Part shown: in pieces, positions 3,451 through 30,090 of the stretch
Layout: each line of letters starts with the position of its first letter
Numbering within the stretch: the stretch's first letter is position 1
DNA from: Balanoglossus misakiensis
Taxonomy: Eukaryota > Animalia > Hemichordata
Direction: 5' to 3'
Length of the DNA: 64,000 nt
Assembly (NCBI GenBank): GCA_040954595.2
Contig: CM082582.2
Coordinates: 1,054,001 to 1,118,000, forward strand
Translations under genes and position numbers: made by a program
The notes under the pieces: model-generated
The model's input: only the letters and a program-made list of their open reading frames with translations
The model's database searches: none
What the model was told of the DNA's origin: nothing

Positions 3451-3572
3451 TGGAATTGAATATACACAATATGTTTTGTATGTTTGCTGGCTACATACAT
3501 ACATGCATAAATACGTACATACATATAATACACTCATACTCAAACACACAGCTAATGGACTCTTTTTTTCAT

Positions 3573-3646
3573 CATCCCCACCAGGAATCGAACCTGGATC
3601 TCTTATCACAAAGTGACAAGTGTGTTAACCATTACACCATGAGGAT
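3573..3646 (-). tRNA. tRNA-like cloverleaf resembling tRNA-Gln(TTG), with a non-canonical anticodon arm; probably a pseudo-tRNA or repeat-borne Pol III unit (copy 1)
   Basis: Minus strand ATCCTCA TG GTGT AATGGTTA ACAC A CTTGT CACTTTGTG ATAAG AGAT CCAGG TTCGATT CCTGG TGGGGAT G; A-box TGGTGTAATGG and B-box GGTTCGATTCC. Confidence 0.7.
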
Positions 3647-6095
3647 TTTTTATCTCCACTAACTGCCAACACACTGTCCAATTGCACATTCACTCACTGA
3701 CATATTCAACTAACACACCAGTTTCTTTATTTCAAAAAGTACACAGTAAAACATCACAAATGACAAGACAGGGGTATCAGGAATCACACAAATCATACTC
3801 AATGTTTTACTGAAGCCATTGCTGTAAGATTGCTGTAAGTAATGGCACTATTCAATGGTGTTAACACCACATAGCACAATGATGTACTGCACACATTCAA
3901 GTCACATACCTTTTTGAAGTATTAATAAACACTGATTCTATGAACTGTTAAAATTATTTTTTCTTACATCATCCCTGAATACCAAATTTCACACAAATTA
4001 GGCTAGTGCTTTCACATGTTAACACACAATGCATGGCACTGGACAATCATCCTATCCGATCTGAAACCTCAGTGTCACTTACCACAAAACTAAACACGTT
4101 ATCTACAAATGATTTACGAAACTAATTCGTACACGACACGATACACATTTGAGTGTGTTGATCTCTTAGTTTGTACATGATACTTTGCACTGATGTACAC
4201 CAACACTCACCTTGAGAACTCTTTGGTAGCCAAAACTGTCAAGAAAATAAACAAAACTTTTAAATTAAATCATTAAGTATAATTGTGTATTTAAACAAGT
4301 ACATCAAGATATACACTTGCCTGCATAACACACACCTCTCAATAGCCATAATGTATCAATGTCGAGATGACATCACTCCAAGTACAAGATAGCGAATGAT
4401 GATTTTTTTACAATAACCCCACTACTTAAACAGGACAACAAATTACAATGAATTCACTATCAACCTTGTGATATTCAGAAAATCAATTCTTGGTCACATA
4501 AATTGTCCTGTCCACAAAATGGTTTCATGGCATCAAAATATGTTAACAAGTCAACTCTACTTTTCATGCTCCAACCAGATTTCATTGTCTATGTTTTTAA
4601 CATGCCTGTCACGACTATAGAAAGCATACACACTAAACAGAGTGGTCACCAGCATAATTTGGCCAATTCTATGCTTGTCCTCACATTCTTACGAACAATT
4701 CAAATGTCAAATTATCTAGCAATGTTTCTGTTATGTACTCACACAGATTGTTCCATATTTGAAGCAAATAATTATCAAAAACAAATTGATTACCCTGATA
4801 TAAATTCCAATGAAAACCTTAAGGCTTTTGGTCATGTAAACATACAATATTAACAGAAAAAATAATGGAAAATACAATCCATTTTTACTACTGTTTATGT
4901 TTTGACAAATACATATAAGAGACATGGAAACTATTGAAGTACACATCCCAAAATAATATCCTACCACTGCTTGTACGTTTCATACACACGATACAAGACC
5001 GATCGCCCGAATTCAGCAGATTCGCTTGCCTAAAACCGTTTCTAAATAATCATATGTACCTGTATACACTCCAAAAATAAGCTTAATTTCAACTTGTATG
5101 GAATGAAATAGAAACTCCGATGTACCCAGCCTCTGATGTTTCTATTCCTTCAAGCAAACTTCACCATCTTAACATATATACAATTTGCCAAAACATGCAT
5201 ACAAACGACACCCTTTCAGTATATAACGACAACCGCCATATTGGATGTCGCTCGACACGAAAATAAAAAAGCCTGACAAAACTGCCATCGCCTCATACAC
5301 AATTAAAATCACACTACCATTGGATAAAACACAACTACATAACCAATACCATCAACTCTTACACGTTCAAACCACCGATTCTGTCATTTATACTCATTTA
5401 AAAATAACCACGAGAATATACACATATCCCACTAACCTATATTCAGCTGCTGAACAACAAGAGCACTTGATTCGTTTTCGGATGTGACTACGTGCAACAA
5501 CATACGCATCACCATCACATTCGCGTTGGGATTCAAGACAGTTTCAATATCTCAAGAAGCAATACAACGAGAAGACCTTCTCGGGATGTTATGCACATCC
5601 TGTTGGATATCGCCGCCAAATGTCCACAGATGATAAAACATGATACCAGAATGTTGTATTGGGGACAACCATCAAATGTTCCCGTGCCAGCGCCCTCTAT
5701 ATTCTAGAAACCCTGGTATATCTCAAGAAACATTACCATTTTTAATTATTTTTAAAAGCAAAAGTAAGTTGTCATTTTATTTGTACAATTATTTCTCTAT
5801 ATTAAACAAGTACACATAAACACTAAAACATGTTTTGCCATGTTAACATAAATTTATGACCATTTTAAAATACTATATAGCTTATATTTATTAAAGTACA
5901 AATTCAGATGTTTTTCATTTTTAACCATTTCCACAATCAAAATGAAAAAAAAATCGCATTAATAGTAGATTGGGTTATATTGGATATCATTATGTAAAAC
6001 TGAAGAGTCACTATGGCATGGAAACTACTGAGATATGTGGTAGAAAACCAAAATGCCCAACAAATATGCACAGTGTGTGTTGTGTGTTAGATAGG

Positions 6096-7712: not shown

Positions 7713-7989
7713 CCCTTTTTTAATAATTATGTGTGATACAAGAGACTGTTAATGTGGATATATAGTGAATCAACGTTCGACCACACACAGCTTCCATCCC
7801 GTTTGTAGGATATGACAGTAAAAACTCGCCCAAAATGAATAAATGGTAAAGACCAATTATTCATTTTGGCAAGATTTTTCACTCTCGTGTCTACAAGCAG
7901 TGTGTGTTGTTGAATGTTGATTCACTATATATCCACATGTACATTAACATAAATGGTGTCTTGCATCAAACATAATTAATGGAAAAGGG
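7713..7989. mobile_element. Palindromic MITE-like element; half copies near 24357-24512 and 26676-26810
   Basis: Arms ATGTGGATATATAGTGAATCAAC / GTTGATTCACTATATATCCACAT; the left arm recurs in two gene introns. Confidence 0.7.
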
Positions 7990-14402: not shown

Positions 14403-14639
14403 GTATTTTGCATTTTCTCACGGTGGCGACCATATTCCTTTGCGGCGAAGATTTATTATTTGTCTGGTTTAAACTTGCATATGCACTCATACTTAGGGTT
14501 CATAATACTTGTACATAGTTCAGTGCATACTTCTGTATGGGCTAAAGGTGGTGCAGTTTGAAAAAAGTGTGATAATTTCCCAAAAGTACCAGCTGATGCA
14601 CCGATTTATGTCTAATCTCTGTTTTGAATTTCTTGGCAG

Positions 14640-15527
14640 CTTAACCCAAGTTGATAGTACCCTTCTTGTCCTGGACAGAAGTCTATCTGTCAGTACAAAT
14701 GGTGTAACCGTATCAGTTGATGACAACTCGTGGCATAATGTTGTCATGGTAATTGAAGAAGGCATTGTGGCAGTTTACTTGAATGGTGTTGCAGTAACAT
14801 CACCCCTTCCATCCTGGACAGGTATCGCTGACTCAGAAAAGTAAGTTGCTAGTGGAACTCCGAACATTTTTAACTCCTACAAAGCCATAGAAAATTGTCA
14901 TCATCACATGTTAAAAATCTATATTTTCCTATACTGTCAAGTTTTCCCAAGCCTCAAGAGAAGTGAACCATTTATTTGTGAAGCAGTTATCTTGTTTATA
15001 ACTTATCTGCTAGGTAGCTTGTCTTACTCCTACATGACAATACAATATCATCATAACATGTTGCGACTTACAACAAAACTGGCCAAAAAAATCAAGGGAG
15101 CAAACTATGGACATCAGCAAAGCTATCTTCGTGGCACTTTCAAATTCAAACTTATGCGGAACGATACTGATTTTCACAGTTTATTTTTGACAACTTCTTA
15201 CCAGCACTTTTAATGAATTCATTATTCTCTTGTTTTTCAACAGCTGTATGGTAATTCTTGGTCAAAGCTATGACGAAAATGGACTCCTTGACAACTATTT
15301 TAGCTTCCATGGTGATGTTACACAGATGAATGTATACGATTATGTATTGACTCCTGTTGAAATCCAGAGTCTGGCTTTGAACTGTTCACAAAGTCCACTT
15401 GGCAATCATGTCATGTGGGTTGAAATGGATCAAGAGTTATTGGGTAGTGTGGTCAAAATCCAGCCATCAGCTTGTGGAAGTACCAGGTGCCCAATTGGTT
15501 ACTCTGGTTCACCATGCACACCTGTTG
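14640..15527 (+). CDS. Pentraxin/LamG-like domain exons (14640-14840, 15244-15527)
   Basis: DDNSWHNVVMV...VYLNGV and VILGQ...SFHGDVTQMNVYDYVLTPVEIQSLALNC are pentraxin motifs; splice phases match. Confidence 0.88.
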
Positions 15528-15537
15528 GTAAATAGCC

Positions 15538-18183
15538 TTATCATATGCTCATGCTGATATCACCTCCTCCTAGTGACGTTTAACGTGAATATCACCACGT
15601 TTAGTGTGAAATATCACCGGTGATATTTCACACTAAACGTCATCATTTCTTGCGCTTATACCCGGAACTATGTTCATGAAAATGGCGACCTTAAAATGTA
15701 AACAAACATAACCCGATACAGGGCCCGGTTTCATGAGATTTGACATACCGGTAGTCAACATCGAAATTCATGGGGTTCTGATGGCCACGGACATGTCTTA
15801 TAAATAAAGGATTTATCTTGGTGATTGATTTGGAAAACAAACGATTATTAGTTACACACGTAGAAAAAATATGACAACGTCACGTCAACACTGTGCGTCA
15901 CGCGCGCGAGCAGTTGTCCAGGTGACCGGTCTGTTTACGTTCATTACGGTCGTTTACCAAATAAAGATAACCCGAAAATTTTCACAATTATACCTTCTTC
16001 AGACTTTTTTTTGTAGTTTTCAGTAAAATAAACAACTACATTTTTTATGGTTACGTTTTAAAAACAATTCAACACTAAAATGAAAACCCGGTCAATAAAA
16101 AGTGGATGCCTACGGCAAAATTTACTCACTTCCTAAATAGACATCGCAATGGAAGCATTCAATGACCCGGAGATGCAGGAAATTTTCCAACTTGCTGAGT
16201 TATTGTGTCAAGATGAAACTGATACTGCTGTACCCGAACAAAATCAGCAACAACAGCAAAATCAAAATCGGTATGTGGAATTTAATGATGGCGATTTGGA
16301 CGACTTTGTGGACCAGCAAAAAAAGAAGAATACCGTAAGGAGTACGAACACGGCAGTGAAGCAGTTTCAGGAATGGTTGTCGAGTATGCGCCCAACAGAA
16401 ACTCGTCGTATAGTTGATATGCCACCCCAAGATCTGGATAGCCACCTTGCTGCATATTTTGTTGGAGCCAGGCAGAAAAATGGTGAGCAGTATGAACCCG
16501 ATACTTTGACGAGCTATCAGCGGGGAATCGAGCGTTATCTGCAGGACAACGGTTACCCGGTCTCCATCATCCGTGACAATGAATTCCAACGCTCCCGAAA
16601 ATGCCTCTCAGCAAAAAGAGTTGAACTAAAAAAACAGGGACGGGGAAATAAGCCACAAGCTGCCGAAGTGCTTACAGATGAAGAAGAACAACTTTTAATT
16701 GAACGAGGATTTGTCGGTCGATCGACTCCCGAAGCGTTGTTCAACGCAGTTTGGATGAACAACACCAAGATGTTGGGCTTTCGCGGTGGCCAAGAAAACC
16801 GGGAATTGAAATGGGGGGATATCAAGCTCAAAAAGACGGCCGACCACAAAGAATATATCGAATTCAATGAAAGGGAGACTAAGACCAGATTTGGACAGGC
16901 TGGTGCAAAACCACGACCCTTCAACCCCAAAATCTTCGCAACTCCCGAGAAGCCAGACACATGTCCCATAGCCACATACAAGGAGTTCGCTAATCGTCGC
17001 CCCGTTGAGATGAATACCCCAGACAGCCCCTTCTACTTGGCAATCAATTATTCGCCCTCATCAACCATATGGTTTAAGAAATCCCCTATGGGAAAGAATA
17101 AGTTGGCAACAGTCATCCAAAGTATGAGCGATAAAGCAGGCATCAGAGGGAAAAAAACCAATCACAGCATGAGAAAAACAGCCATCACGAAATTGCTGCA
17201 TGCAGGCATTCCACCGACCCAAGTACAACAGTTATCGGGCCACAGTCAGCTGCAGTCGGTCAACAACTACGCCACCGCCTCGCTCAGGCAGCAGGAAGAG
17301 ATGTCAAACATCCTCGCTCCAGGTTCATCCAAACAAGTCGAAAATCGCGCAATTTCTAGTTCCGTCAGTTCAAACACGTGTCAGATGGAAGCGGCGACAA
17401 CGGGTGGTATATTTAGCGACGCAGTTATATATGGCGGCTCGTTTAATATCTATGTTTCAAACGCGACGTCGACGGGATCATCATCTATGACACAGACCCC
17501 ACCACCGTACAAACGCCGCCGCCGTGCAGTCATTTATGACTCTCCGTCCTCATCAGAAAATTCCCAGGAATGATCAGACTTTGAGACTCTTTTTGAACTT
17601 TGAAATGAATAGCCTCTGGCTTTATTTGCAATTTAACTGATTTCAAACCGATTTTAAATTCATGACGTTCACTTGTTGTTGCACCCCTAAAAAAATGTGT
17701 TCGATTCAATTTTCAAACATTTTGTTGTTTTGCATGATAGAGAGCGGTTGACCTCCTTTGACAATTTACTATTTAAAAACATCTTTGACTTACCGATGTT
17801 GTCGTTTCCTACCGTTATTTAACATCTTTACAGTTATCCTCATATTTTTATATCACCGCTACGCTACACTTAAAAATGGCGCGTCATGTCAACATGAATG
17901 AAGCCGATTTACAATGTTAATAAAATATCAATGCGCTAAGCGGAATAAAATAATTCATTAAAATTAAAGTGTTCTCGCTTTATTTTTTCATTTTTCTTGT
18001 AAATTCCGAAGTTTGAGCATATGATAAATCGGTTATCGCCCCATATCACCTCTTGTTGGGTCATATTTGCCGCTCGTGTGGGTTGTGAGCTGCATCACAC
18101 TCGTCTTCGACTCGTGTGATGCGGCTCACAACCCACACTCGCGGCAAATATGGCCCAACAAGAGGTGATATGGGGCGATAACC
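15538..18183 (+). mobile_element. CryptonA-type tyrosine-recombinase DNA transposon, apparently full length, inserted about 10 bp into an intron
   Basis: Single intact YR ORF; 14-bp inverted repeat TTATCATATGCTCA (15538-15551) / TGAGCATATGATAA (18014-18027); 44-bp palindrome at 15597-15640; 153-nt terminal hairpin at 18031-18183; GC content higher than the flanking intron. Confidence 0.88.
16149..17573 (+). CDS. Crypton tyrosine recombinase (DUF3504 family, related to ZMYM/KCTD1/QRICH1/KIAA1958 domesticates), 474 aa
   Basis: ARQKNGEQYEPDTL...GIERYL; catalytic set R (GFRGGQE), K (ETKT), HxxR (TNHSMRKT), H (SGH), Y (SVNNY) all present; C-terminal KRRRR is a likely NLS; AATAAA near 17919 and 17944. 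Confidence 0.92.
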   Translation: MEAFNDPEMQEIFQLAELLCQDETDTAVPEQNQQQQQNQNRYVEFNDGDLDDFVDQQKKKNTVRSTNTAVKQFQEWLSSMRPTETRRIVDMPPQDLDSHLAAYFVGARQKNGEQYEPDTLTSYQRGIERYLQDNGYPVSIIRDNEFQRSRKCLSAKRVELKKQGRGNKPQAAEVLTDEEEQLLIERGFVGRSTPEALFNAVWMNNTKMLGFRGGQENRELKWGDIKLKKTADHKEYIEFNERETKTRFGQAGAKPRPFNPKIFATPEKPDTCPIATYKEFANRRPVEMNTPDSPFYLAINYSPSSTIWFKKSPMGKNKLATVIQSMSDKAGIRGKKTNHSMRKTAITKLLHAGIPPTQVQQLSGHSQLQSVNNYATASLRQQEEMSNILAPGSSKQVENRAISSSVSSNTCQMEAATTGGIFSDAVIYGGSFNIYVSNATSTGSSSMTQTPPPYKRRRRAVIYDSPSSSENSQE

Positions 18184-18519
18184 TCATATTATTCATTACT
18201 ATCAAACAATTTTATGCATAATCTGACGAGGAGAAATTGGGTCATATTCACAGAGTTGATTAATCCTAAATCCTTACTTTAACACAGCTCTCCTTGTAAT
18301 GTTGTGTCTGTCCAGGGAAAACTGTGTGAAATTTTGAGTAGTTTTTCCTGTGTACATTCACCAGCCCCTAGCTGCTGTGTGTTGTACTCCAATCACACAG
18401 CCTGCAATCTCCCTACTTTAGGAAGTATAGGGAATCATCATCTGCCCATGCCTGTATCGCTCACTCTTTTTGTTTCTACCGTACATGTATTTAACACTGA
18501 ATGTAATGATACTATTCAC

Positions 18520-23049: not shown

Positions 23050-25908
23050 CTCCTGGGAAGACTCAACGTGGAGTGAATTGTGGCGTGTCATACAATTCAC
23101 AGGCTGGTACATGTAACAATGGTGTCATCCAGCAATTGAGGATCAGTTTTATGAACACTATCAACTATCTGAATGATTTGTTTGGTATTTGTGGCGGTGA
23201 ATGCAACTTTGATGACCTTGAAATAACCTGCGGCGCCTCAAACCGAAGAAAGAGACAGGCTGATACTCAGCTTGTGGTTCAGTTCAGTTTCACAACCAAT
23301 GCGTGAGTAGTAATTGTTATTTTTCGAGTATTTCATTCCCCTTCTGTTCTATTGAAATGACTTTGGTGACATGTCTAGGGTACTGATCCCAGGCTGTGTG
23401 AGGACCAGCTCTGTATTCCCTATACAGCTGGTGTTTGCATTATTGCAAAATATTCCATTCATGCAAGTGAAAACAAATTATTTTGTGTCTTAACACTCAA
23501 ACATTTTCAGTTTTTGGCAACCCCATCATTTCTGCCCACCTTCCTTCATGTTGCGGCATCCTGTATTCTAAAGATTCATGCATTCGAAATATACTGCAAA
23601 ACGTGTTATTTTCGCGAGCAGTAAATTTCTGCAAAACATGTGCTGGTCAAAAAAACGTTAAAATAAAAAGTTGTGTAAAATGTTTTTGGAGATAATGATG
23701 CAGTTAGTGAAATACGAGAACTCGAAAATTCGTCCTCACGTAACAGTCGCCTCTTTTAATATCGCGAAAATTTCCTGTCGTGAAAACAACTCAGTTTACA
23801 GTACACACTTCTGGTTGGTATTGTAATGTGGCATATGTAAGAATTTTTTGCCTGTTGTTTTATCCATTAGCTCTGCTGATGCTGCAGCTGTAGTTATTGA
23901 AGATGCAGTCAAGAATGGTCCTTTTGATACAGCTGAATATTCGGTCGACGCTGAGACATTACAAGTTGAAAGTACAATATTCTGTTCCAATGGTAGTGTT
24001 CTTGTTGGAGAAGAATGTGGTGAGTGCCTATACTCCTCAGTTGTTATGTACTTTAACCCTTTCACTCCCAGTTACCTCTATAGAGGTCAAACCTTACAAT
24101 AGAAAACAATTGGTTTGGACTGAACCATGGTGGTGAAAGGATTAAAACTGTGTCCAAAATTAATATTATAAAAAGGTGTAGATGTTAATATGTTTATATC
24201 GCCTGATATGACCTGTTAGGTGGGGCGTATTGCTGCGAGTGTGGTTGTGAGTCGCAGTGTACAAATTAAAGACAAGTGTGAGTGGTAAATACAACCCAAC
24301 CAAGAGGTGATATAAGGAAATAATTGATTTGATATGCTCATACCAAGGAGGGACAAAGTCTCTTTCTCGCTGCCCTTTTTCCATTAATTATGTTTGATAG
24401 AAGACACAGTTAATGTTATTCTACATGTGGATATATAGTGAATCAACATTCAACCACACACAACTGCAATCCCACTTGTAGACACAAGAGTGAAAAACTG
24501 GCCAAAATGAATGCTGTGTGTTACAATTGTAGTTGTGTTTTAAACCATTAATGCATAATGATCAGTACATGAACAATGTATACATCTGCCTTCAACATTT
24601 TGTATTTCCACAGTATTGTGTCCTGAAGGGTCGTACCATGACACTGAGCTGAGTCAGTGCCATCCTTGTGCAATTGGATATTATCAACCCCTTGAAGGAC
24701 AAACAGCATGCAATGCCTGTCCAAATAATGGAGTCACCAGGGGAAAGAGATCATTATCCATCTTGCAGTGTTTTGGTATGTATAACAGAAGGCAATATCT
24801 CCTCCTCGTCCACAGCCATAGCCTAGTATCTAGCCGTATTTTGTCCGCTTTGCTTCCAAAACTAGCGTCTAGCCTCACTCATGCCACTGGCCCGATAAAA
24901 CCCCATACCCCTTGCCGGGAATTGTGACGTATATATCAAATTATTGTGGTGTGATCCAATATGGAAAGAATGACAATTGGAATGTTCATCTCTTTGGTTG
25001 AAAAAATAATTTTTCAACAATGATGTCTATTGCAGAGAGGTGCGATGTTGGTCACTACTTTGACAACGGGACTTCTCAGTGCCAAAGCTGCCCCATTGGA
25101 TTCTGGCAATCAGAAGAAGGAAAGTTTGTGTGTAATACTTGCCCAAAGGGAATGCTTACATTAGTTGAAGGAGCTACTGATGAGTCACAATGTCAGGGTA
25201 GGTACTTGTGTTATTTGCTATTCTTGACTATCAATCACATGATCTGGCCATGTGACGTACCCATGGCGTTATCATTTGTAAGTGACAGGCAAGCAATATT
25301 TCGGCATCCAGTAAACTTTTTTCCGAGTAGGTTTTTACTTTAGAACCGCCAGATATGTAACATATTCAACAGTTTAACAAATTCACGTGAGTGAAAAGCA
25401 GATAATCGTGAATATCAAAAAATTAATCTTCTCAATTACAGAGGTATGTAAATCAGTGGGAGTCCAACTTAGTGTCAATGGGTCTTGTGAGTCGTGTCCC
25501 ATGGGAACCTATCAATCAAATGCTGAACTTCAGCCATCTTGTATGCCGTGCCCATTTGGCTTCACCACAAGAACAGTCGGTTCAACCTTAAGTGAAGATT
25601 GTAATGTTTGTAAGTATTATGTATACAACTTTTCATGTTGTATCTCAACTGTACTGAACTGAAGGTTGTATTATTGTGCCTCAGTTGTTCAGAATAATGA
25701 TAGTCCTCCAATTTTATTCTATGCTCTTTTTCCATTCCATCAACAGCTTACTGCAATGTTGGTTGGTACTTGAATCAGGAGTCCTATAGATGTGAGAAAT
25801 GCCCTGTTGGAACATATAACTTTGAATTCAACCAGGATGCTTGTCAACCATGCCCAACTGGCTACACTACAGGCAGAGAGGGTGCCCTATATGAAACAGA
25901 ATGTGATG
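23050..25908 (+). CDS. Linker with furin site (RRKR) followed by GCC2/3 (ephrin-receptor-like) Cys-rich repeats
   Basis: Repeated C-P-x-G-[TY]-Y-Q...C..CP...T...G....C pattern in exons 24614-24775, 25036-25197, 25442-25609 and 25747-25908. Confidence 0.9.
24057..24141. mobile_element. Tiny piggyBac-like MITE
   Basis: TTAA|CCCTTTCAC ... GTGAAAGGA|TTAA. Confidence 0.55.
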
Positions 25909-29625: not shown

Positions 29626-30090
29626 TAGTACTCGCACAAGGGGGCTGCAAACATGAAAGTTATAAATGGCGGAGTTCCTGCATTTTCCCCCAATAAACAT
29701 TAATTGATGAACAGTCTTTGTGCTTGTTTATTTTTCTGTGTTACCTCCACCTGTCTTAGCAGTTGCTAATCCAGAATACAAACTATTGCATTTCCCATTA
29801 AGCACCTGCTAACGACTTAATCTGTGTGCCCCATCCACGGATTTAGTGGATTAAGTAAACATCGGTCAGTTCTCACTTGGTAAGAGAATACCCAGTACTC
29901 GCTGACCGATGTTTACTTTATTAACTTAATCCGTGGATGGGGCACACAGATTAAGTCGTTAGCAGGTGATTAATGGGAAATGGATAGCTTTTATTCTGGA
30001 TTAGCAAATGATAAGACAGGTTGGGAAAACGCAGAATGGAACGTACTTCGCCATTTATAACTTTCATGTTTGCAGCCCCCTGTGGTACTA
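29626..30090. mobile_element. Long palindromic (foldback) MITE
   Basis: GGGGGCTGCAAACATGAAAGTTATAAATGGCG and CACCTGCTAACGACTTAATCTGTGTGCCCCATCCACGGATT occur as inverted arms around about 29885. Confidence 0.8.

Follow-up and report, generated by a model that had tools for sequence, protein, structure and literature searches.

A conserved, co-varying end structure of CryptonA elements suggests transposition in the manner of an integron cassette

CryptonA elements possess a real, conserved and co-varying end structure, in which the left-end arm (A) recurs near the right end as an inverted copy (A') that is joined, across a short spacer, to a long terminal hairpin. We describe this structure in an intact element of the hemichordate Balanoglossus misakiensis, located in a window of 64,000 nucleotides (i.e., the whole stretch of DNA that was analyzed), and in relatives of that element. 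The order of arms and spacers is that of an integron cassette, and it is rather probable, in our judgment, that the element transposes like a self-mobile cassette of this kind, by means of a folded strand and one strand exchange. The features on which the argument is based are as follows.

15538-18188, plus strand: whole CryptonA-type element, 2651 bp, delimited by the empty-site joint
15527-15537, plus strand: host side of the target, with a half-site-like word (GGTAA) followed by six bases up to the crossover
15538-15551, plus strand: arm A, left end, starting with the core TTAT; counterpart of attC R'
15597-15640, no strand assigned: perfect 44-nt sub-terminal palindrome near the left end
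16149-17573, plus strand: tyrosine recombinase ORF, intact, 474 aa
18014-18027, plus strand: A', arm A repeated exactly in inverse orientation; corresponds to attC R''
18028-18032, plus strand: internal spacer N5, 5 nt, length conserved in relatives
18033-18105, plus strand: left arm of the hairpin, its first 10 nt being B
18109-18181, plus strand: right arm of the hairpin, its last 10 nt being B'
18182-18188, plus strand: right-end spacer N7, a constant 7 nt that belongs to the element
18189-18192, plus strand: host TTAT, the target core, a direct repeat of 15538-15541
24178-24349, minus strand: degraded solo A'-spacer-hairpin tail of the same family

The boundaries were determined from contigs of four public runs, which represent two samples and two studies and one of which may be the window's own source. 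A joint from 15537 to 18189, i.e., the empty site, was present in a contig of each of runs X1, X3 and X4, and the same joint appeared as a loose end in run X2; the four letters TTAT fit either side of it. The empty site is clean, and the short direct repeat TTAT lies on both sides of the element, without a true target duplication. The element is recently inserted, insertion-polymorphic and intact. A sequence-only reading had placed its ends at 15538 and 18183. The left boundary was right, and the right one was five bases short, as both the empty site and other copies demonstrate an end at 18188. At least nine X1 and at least eight X2 contigs, all from one sample, match the window up to 18192-18194 and then continue into unlike flanks (for rows of several contigs, flank agreement past the right end was 0.56-0.67); each of these two runs also has one diverged copy that stops matching at 18188. 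Copies of the element thus run 5 nt beyond the right end given in that reading, which by the reading's own terms counts in a small way against it; copies were counted in run contigs. Two X1 contigs part from the window at 18183, and they probably represent the left hairpin arm read backwards. A circle joint was absent from the 10 joints listed for the four runs, in contigs that drop rare forms. Other joints, such as 15645 to 18081 (80% likeness, short sides), may be deletion derivatives.

On the host side, the half-site-like word of the window's target lies six bases ahead of TTAT and is absent from most other targets; six bases is the canonical core-site spacing and falls between 5 and 7. By our assignment, the GT at 15528 is likely the splice donor of a host pentraxin-domain exon. 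The host exons at 15191-15527 and 14506-14841 matched Pentaxin (Pfam, E 1e-7) and, weakly, Laminin_G_3, which would place the element approximately 10 nt past the likely donor, within an intron.

Arm A and A' form an inverted pair over 14 of 14 nt, each occurring once in the 64-kb window, and B (18033-18042) and B' (18172-18181) form an exact 10-nt inverted pair. Both pairs, together with the 5-nt gap between A' and B, have the coordinates and exact matches originally claimed, and the internal site is indeed an arm-spacer-arm copy of both ends. What had been missed is that B and B' are only the outer 10 nt of a terminal hairpin with 75-nt arms (18031-18105 and 18109-18183) that are 92% complementary. 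The DNA fold of this hairpin has an energy of -90.2 kcal/mol (z -21.6), and none of 200 shuffles was as low. When the variable part of A' was shuffled, none of 2000 shuffles found an equally good match in the 800 nt that precede the ORF. The internal site had also been described as the reverse complement of the circle junction: its arms do match the junction, and its spacer has 5 rather than 7 nt. Hence, with the right end at 18188, it is not an exact reverse complement.

An Rfam search returned only sub-threshold matches to microRNA hairpins. The hairpin tips of the window (18095-18120) and of loci L001, L003, L053, L075 and L081 share small loops of the form CTCG followed by GC-rich sequence, and they are alike although their stems differ. 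The 8-mer ATATCACC occurs seven times in the element (at 15557, 15589, 15611, 15619, 17850, 18043 and 18164), compared with twice in the rest of the window; these words and the 44-nt palindrome are possibly accessory recombinase binding sites. The solo tail at 24178-24349 has no A-like arm (up to three mismatches) within approximately 5.6 kb on its far side. Two further repeats in the window are likely MITEs, namely a long nested inverted repeat with 94-nt arms at 29734-30036, and an inverted repeat with 43-nt arms at 7747-7943 that has a second partial copy at 24420-24465.

The single long ORF encodes a tyrosine recombinase with matches to DUF3504 (E 2e-22), Phage_integrase (1.6e-11) and QRICH1 (4.9e-8). 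Its residues R212, K245, H339, R342, H365 and Y374 are presumably catalytic, to judge from motif knowledge. H339, R342, Y374 and K245 were invariant, and R212 and H365 were conserved in at least 90% of sequences, in an alignment of 37 sequences comprising the window and 36 of the 120 homologues among the matches listed; the named homologues among these matches come from hemichordates, bivalves and cnidarians. An AlphaFold model (pLDDT 79.7) had its best structural matches in QRICH1 and Cre, and the IntI structure 2a3v ranked 32. The recombinase has no C-terminal accessory domain, and no ORF for reverse transcriptase (RT), RNase H, gag, polymerase or HUH/helicase was found in the element. With its DUF3504 recombinase and single ORF, the element is a Crypton, as first proposed, and specifically a CryptonA-type member of a known family. 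It shares with described CryptonA elements (PMC3212892; Glomhopper, PMC13465315) the single DUF3504 ORF without accessory domain, an animal host, a short direct repeat and the likely existence of non-autonomous derivatives; it differs in that a conserved inverted end copy, spacers of 5 and 7 nt and a long hairpin define its ends. Animal Cryptons are reported to have no terminal repeats (PMC3212892), and the 2026 account of Glomhopper describes no TIRs, with repeats in fungi that are poorly conserved, variable or undetected (PMC13465315). A curation guide gives Cryptons only a short direct repeat (PMC8969392). Because the family is defined by its protein, the terminal repeats of this element are read as an overlooked or variant feature.

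Relatives were collected by alignment search (the best 80 of 386 metagenome loci, plus three loci from genome contigs); an alignment search of viral contigs yielded none. To judge from their contigs, these loci look like animal host DNA, and the CryptonA loci L081, L082 and L083, which are within GTDB bacterial MAG records, likely reflect contamination by host DNA. In 22 loci, the window included, self-BLAST detected a total of 25 hairpins, 90-215 nt in length, located behind the ORF. At the hairpin foot, an ATAA-N5-TTAY-like core was found in 16 of the 25 (one of them off register), and each other spacing from 2 to 9 was found in one to three. This spacer count rests on the self-BLAST hairpins, because a permissive scan of both strands gave many matches at other spacings (5-9 forward loci, versus 15 at N5); a reverse-strand control in the upstream kilobase (three loci at N5) is not a clean null, since one clade has the structure in that orientation. 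The tail was scored in 29 of the 83 relatives, i.e., in 30 loci with the window, with registers fixed by eye; the remaining 54 are mostly short contigs or loci in which no hairpin was found. Far-side sequence of 400 nt or more was available for 22 loci; in 15 of these, the left end agreed with A' at no fewer than 10 of 12 positions, and 13 of these matches beat composition shuffles (p<=0.011); those of L003 and L060 are of low complexity and did not. The seven loci with no left-end match were L008, whose contig begins inside the arm, L012, L015, L016, L025, L077 and L082.

Full elements measured 1.77-2.65 kb, and their recombinases were 36-46% identical to that of the window. At this divergence, the layout A...A'-N5-hairpin-N7, including the adjacency of A', spacer and B that the sequence-only reading had singled out, was conserved across families with different arm sequences. 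In a quick tree of the fetched loci (72 of 84 rows), the layout was present in both of the groups separated by the midpoint root, and it survived reversal of the ORF in one clade. Clustering of layout labels on the tree was tried and was uninformative, as the class without the layout includes truncated contigs. The clade with the tail before the ORF on the other strand has 13 rows (SH-aLRT 100), and there the tail lies approximately 90-255 nt before the matched ORF, on the minus strand, so that the hairpin overlaps the likely promoter side. Reversal of the ORF relative to the end structure was seen in L011, L012, L015, L016, L019, L022, L023, L024 and L027. Tail-like sites of neighboring or nested elements abut element ends in L042 (approximately 3560-3700) and near the ORF of L027, which suggests that Cryptons insert into or beside each other's core sites. 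L023, L024 and L081 are inserted in TA/TACA microsatellites, with repeated targets of T/C followed by NT.

Co-variation of the arms was examined in seven full elements, one per clade. Over positions 5-12, A agreed with the A' of the same element at a total of 52 of 56 positions; permuted A/A' pairings gave a mean of 29.1, and only the true pairing among 5040 reached 52. Since these representatives were chosen for having a match, the result demonstrates that arms differ and that A' follows, not how often this occurs. Within the hairpin, 28 of 33 consensus pairs had changes on both sides in a set of eight hand-picked, related tails. Both A/A' and B/B' therefore co-vary across families, as had been anticipated. 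Given that A and B differ beyond TTAT, we infer that a shared protein-binding consensus does not account for the way in which A' follows A and B' follows B.

The two spacers are unequal in a regular way. In five families, the right end was nearly constant for seven columns after B' and broke at the eighth; the largest family had 9, 9, 9, 6, 9, 9 and 9 of 9 agreeing, and then 5 of 9. These constant columns set the spacer length at 7 nt without recourse to the window. In 27 of 28 loci, the final base of N5 and the initial base of N7 form a pair, of which there are three types, and the first base of N5 was A in 30 of 30. The base before the left end was C or T in 16 of 16 elements. The first base of the right flank was A in 14, T in 9 and G in 7 of 30 loci, and the second host base was T in 28 of 30. 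The N7 of an element equaled its left flank in none of 16 full elements; N7 stays at the right. A variable coupling sequence of the Tn916 type was considered and ruled out by the constancy of the right spacer. By analogy with Tn916-type elements, two exchanges across unlike spacers should place N7 on the left in about half of insertions. The consistent position of N7 on the right, with no left-flank match in 16 elements, points to one exchange.

How such ends could be used is suggested by bacterial systems. The integron attC site is an imperfect hairpin of the bottom strand with unpaired spacers of 5-6 nt, which undergoes one exchange that replication resolves (PMC5027507), and it can fold from single strands or as a cruciform (PMC8946536). 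An integron cassette and the present element share the order of core half-site, gene, inverse core, spacer, stem, spacer and next core. Sequence varies while pairing is kept in both, the site is split on integration, and the crossover is at one spacer edge on the bottom strand, as predicted here for the element. The attC core is RYYYAAC/GTTRRRY with the crossover in AAC (PMC5027507), whereas the core here is ATAA/TTAT. The element also differs in encoding its own recombinase, not IntI-like by fold ranking, in having no attI and no array, and in being eukaryotic; its asymmetry is a 2-nt excess in a spacer. Ungapped pair counts revealed family-specific mismatches at offsets 4-5 of the inner (B) arm, with none in the window; an extrahelical base conserved in that arm was not evident across the families compared. 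CTXphi attP is likewise a fold-back of approximately 150 bp containing two inverted core sites, processed by one pair of exchanges and resolved by replication (PMC5357621). CTXphi depends on the XerCD recombinases of its host and on a fixed dif site, and it is not excised (PMC5357621), whereas the element here encodes its enzyme, has loose targets and splits its fold on integration.

In the mechanism that we favor, joining of the ends would create A'-N5-B-stem-B'-N7-A, which would fold into one hairpin of approximately 95 bp. The foot of this hairpin would be a duplex core site, in which the junction strand has two additional bases. When ends were joined in silico, the bottom strand of 14 of 15 elements formed 10-12 of 12 A:A' pairs in the correct register, and the folds mostly left two unpaired bases in N7; L022 was left out because its N7 is disrupted. 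Tyrosine recombinases form a 3'-phosphotyrosine (PMC5357621), here predicted on the arm side, with a free 5'-OH on the spacer side. With the crossover at the edge between N7 and TTAT, this chemistry would mean that the bottom strand, antisense to the ORF, is cut after ATAA. The element's recombinase would then exchange this single strand with a double-stranded target of loose specificity, leaving a junction for host replication to resolve. For excision, the reaction would be repeated with the folded right end and the left end as partners, again on one strand, and the folds might arise from replication-exposed single strands or by cruciform extrusion. A:A' pairing across the integrated element, a possible dumbbell, would be one way to excise; the A:A' duplex alone has -14.5 kcal/mol and would need 2.5 kb of single strand. 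Alternatively, a locally folded right end could use the host TTAT. The dumbbell is not needed for integration, since in the circle A adjoins B' and extends the hairpin. The incoming host strand can pair (A-T or G-T) with the invariant internal base of a folded partner in 15 of 15 elements and with a double-stranded partner in 12 of 15, so pairing at the cut separates the two models in only three elements; the same bias could also stem from a preference of the protein. For the insertion in the window itself, the 5'-OH base of the element would be opposite a mismatched host base at the reciprocal joint. A folded single-strand substrate, as the sequence-only reading had proposed, is the best reading of these sequence data.

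The published model (PMC3212892; PMC13565253) supposes instead that the TTAT direct repeats recombine with each other to excise a duplex circle. On this view, the hairpin and the internal site would serve as duplex accessory or decoy sites, kept alike by recombinase specificity or by occasional inversion or conversion. The 4-nt direct repeat and clean empty site are as this model expects, Cre is the closest recombinase fold, the repeated ATATCACC words could be accessory sites, and data on active CryptonF in Chlamydomonas were fitted by it (PMC9977147). We nevertheless consider it unlikely. It leaves unexplained a stem of 50-75 bp with compensatory sequence turnover, the tracking of A rather than of a common consensus by A', and the fixed 5/7 asymmetry with a one-sided spacer (0 of 16). 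Furthermore, coral and related loci often lack TTAT in the right flank, and hence have no full direct repeat.

A second alternative, which we regard as improbable, would have the internal site rebuild lost ends on a single-stranded intermediate, as in DIRS elements, or the hairpin prime a second strand, before a duplex circle integrates. The DIRS-1 ICR is 88 nt long, complements both ends without a mismatch and functions after reverse transcription (PMC7192593). Both are tyrosine-recombinase elements in which internal complements of the two ends lie side by side close to the right end, in the a...a'b...b' order of the DIRS ICR, a region that DIRS needs for retrotransposition (PMC7192593). The analogy drawn by the sequence-only reading thus applies to the repeat layout and breaks down in detail: the A part here is 12-24 nt, the B part is a local hairpin, and, unlike the exact DIRS-1 ICR, the spacer is inexact by 2 nt in a conserved manner. 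Templating would give a junction spacer of 5 nt, yet copies keep their own 7-nt spacer, and the element has no RT or polymerase ORF. Because the 2-nt difference is conserved, the internal site cannot template the junction, which rules out the exact-template reading, and a role as pairing partner suits it better than one as template. A third alternative, in which an HUH enzyme acting in trans mobilizes Helitron2-like ends and the recombinase is a passenger, would account for the asymmetric inverted repeats, hairpin, 5' T and insertion upstream of T in a T-rich context that PMC8969392 describes for Helitron2/Helentron, and it is very improbable, as those elements have an HUH/helicase and small hairpins, whereas this one has no HUH ORF, a hairpin of approximately 150 nt, an internal site with the inverted-arm core geometry ATAA-N5-TTAY, and an intact-looking recombinase that travels with the layout across 36-46% protein identity.

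The layout A...A'-N5-hairpin-N7 was undescribed in the Crypton titles and abstract openings found; Repbase or older accounts may mention repeats. The available portions of PMC5753468, PMC12130899, PMC4157794 and PMC9345347 contain no end structure of this kind, and the literature searched, in the text available, contained no description of a folded-single-strand transposition route in eukaryotes. IntI and XerCD were the only tyrosine recombinases known to act on single-stranded substrates in 2016, according to PMC5027507. A 2026 review states that the Crypton mechanism has not been demonstrated and that a duplex circle is assumed (PMC13565253). With an intact polymorphic element, base-exact ends, and a named strand and cut, the question is directly testable with oligonucleotides.

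The layout provides a rule for locating ends in CryptonA families whose limits had eluded curators. Active CryptonF undergoes clean excisions while its copy number rises (PMC9977147), and a folded-strand route offers a reason for such clean excision and copy gain. Whether the reading extends to CryptonA across marine invertebrates we rate at even chances: these elements would be self-mobile integron-like cassettes, the recombinase of which acts on a folded single strand, with the site rebuilt when ends join, one strand exchanged with a loose target and copies gained through replication. A compact single-strand integrase that demands little of its target could be developed from such elements. 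If true, this would mean that animals possess a structure-guided single-strand recombinase, and it would suggest a possible origin of the DIRS ICR as well as the ancestral activity of the domesticated ZMYM/QRICH1/KCTD1/KIAA1958 domain.
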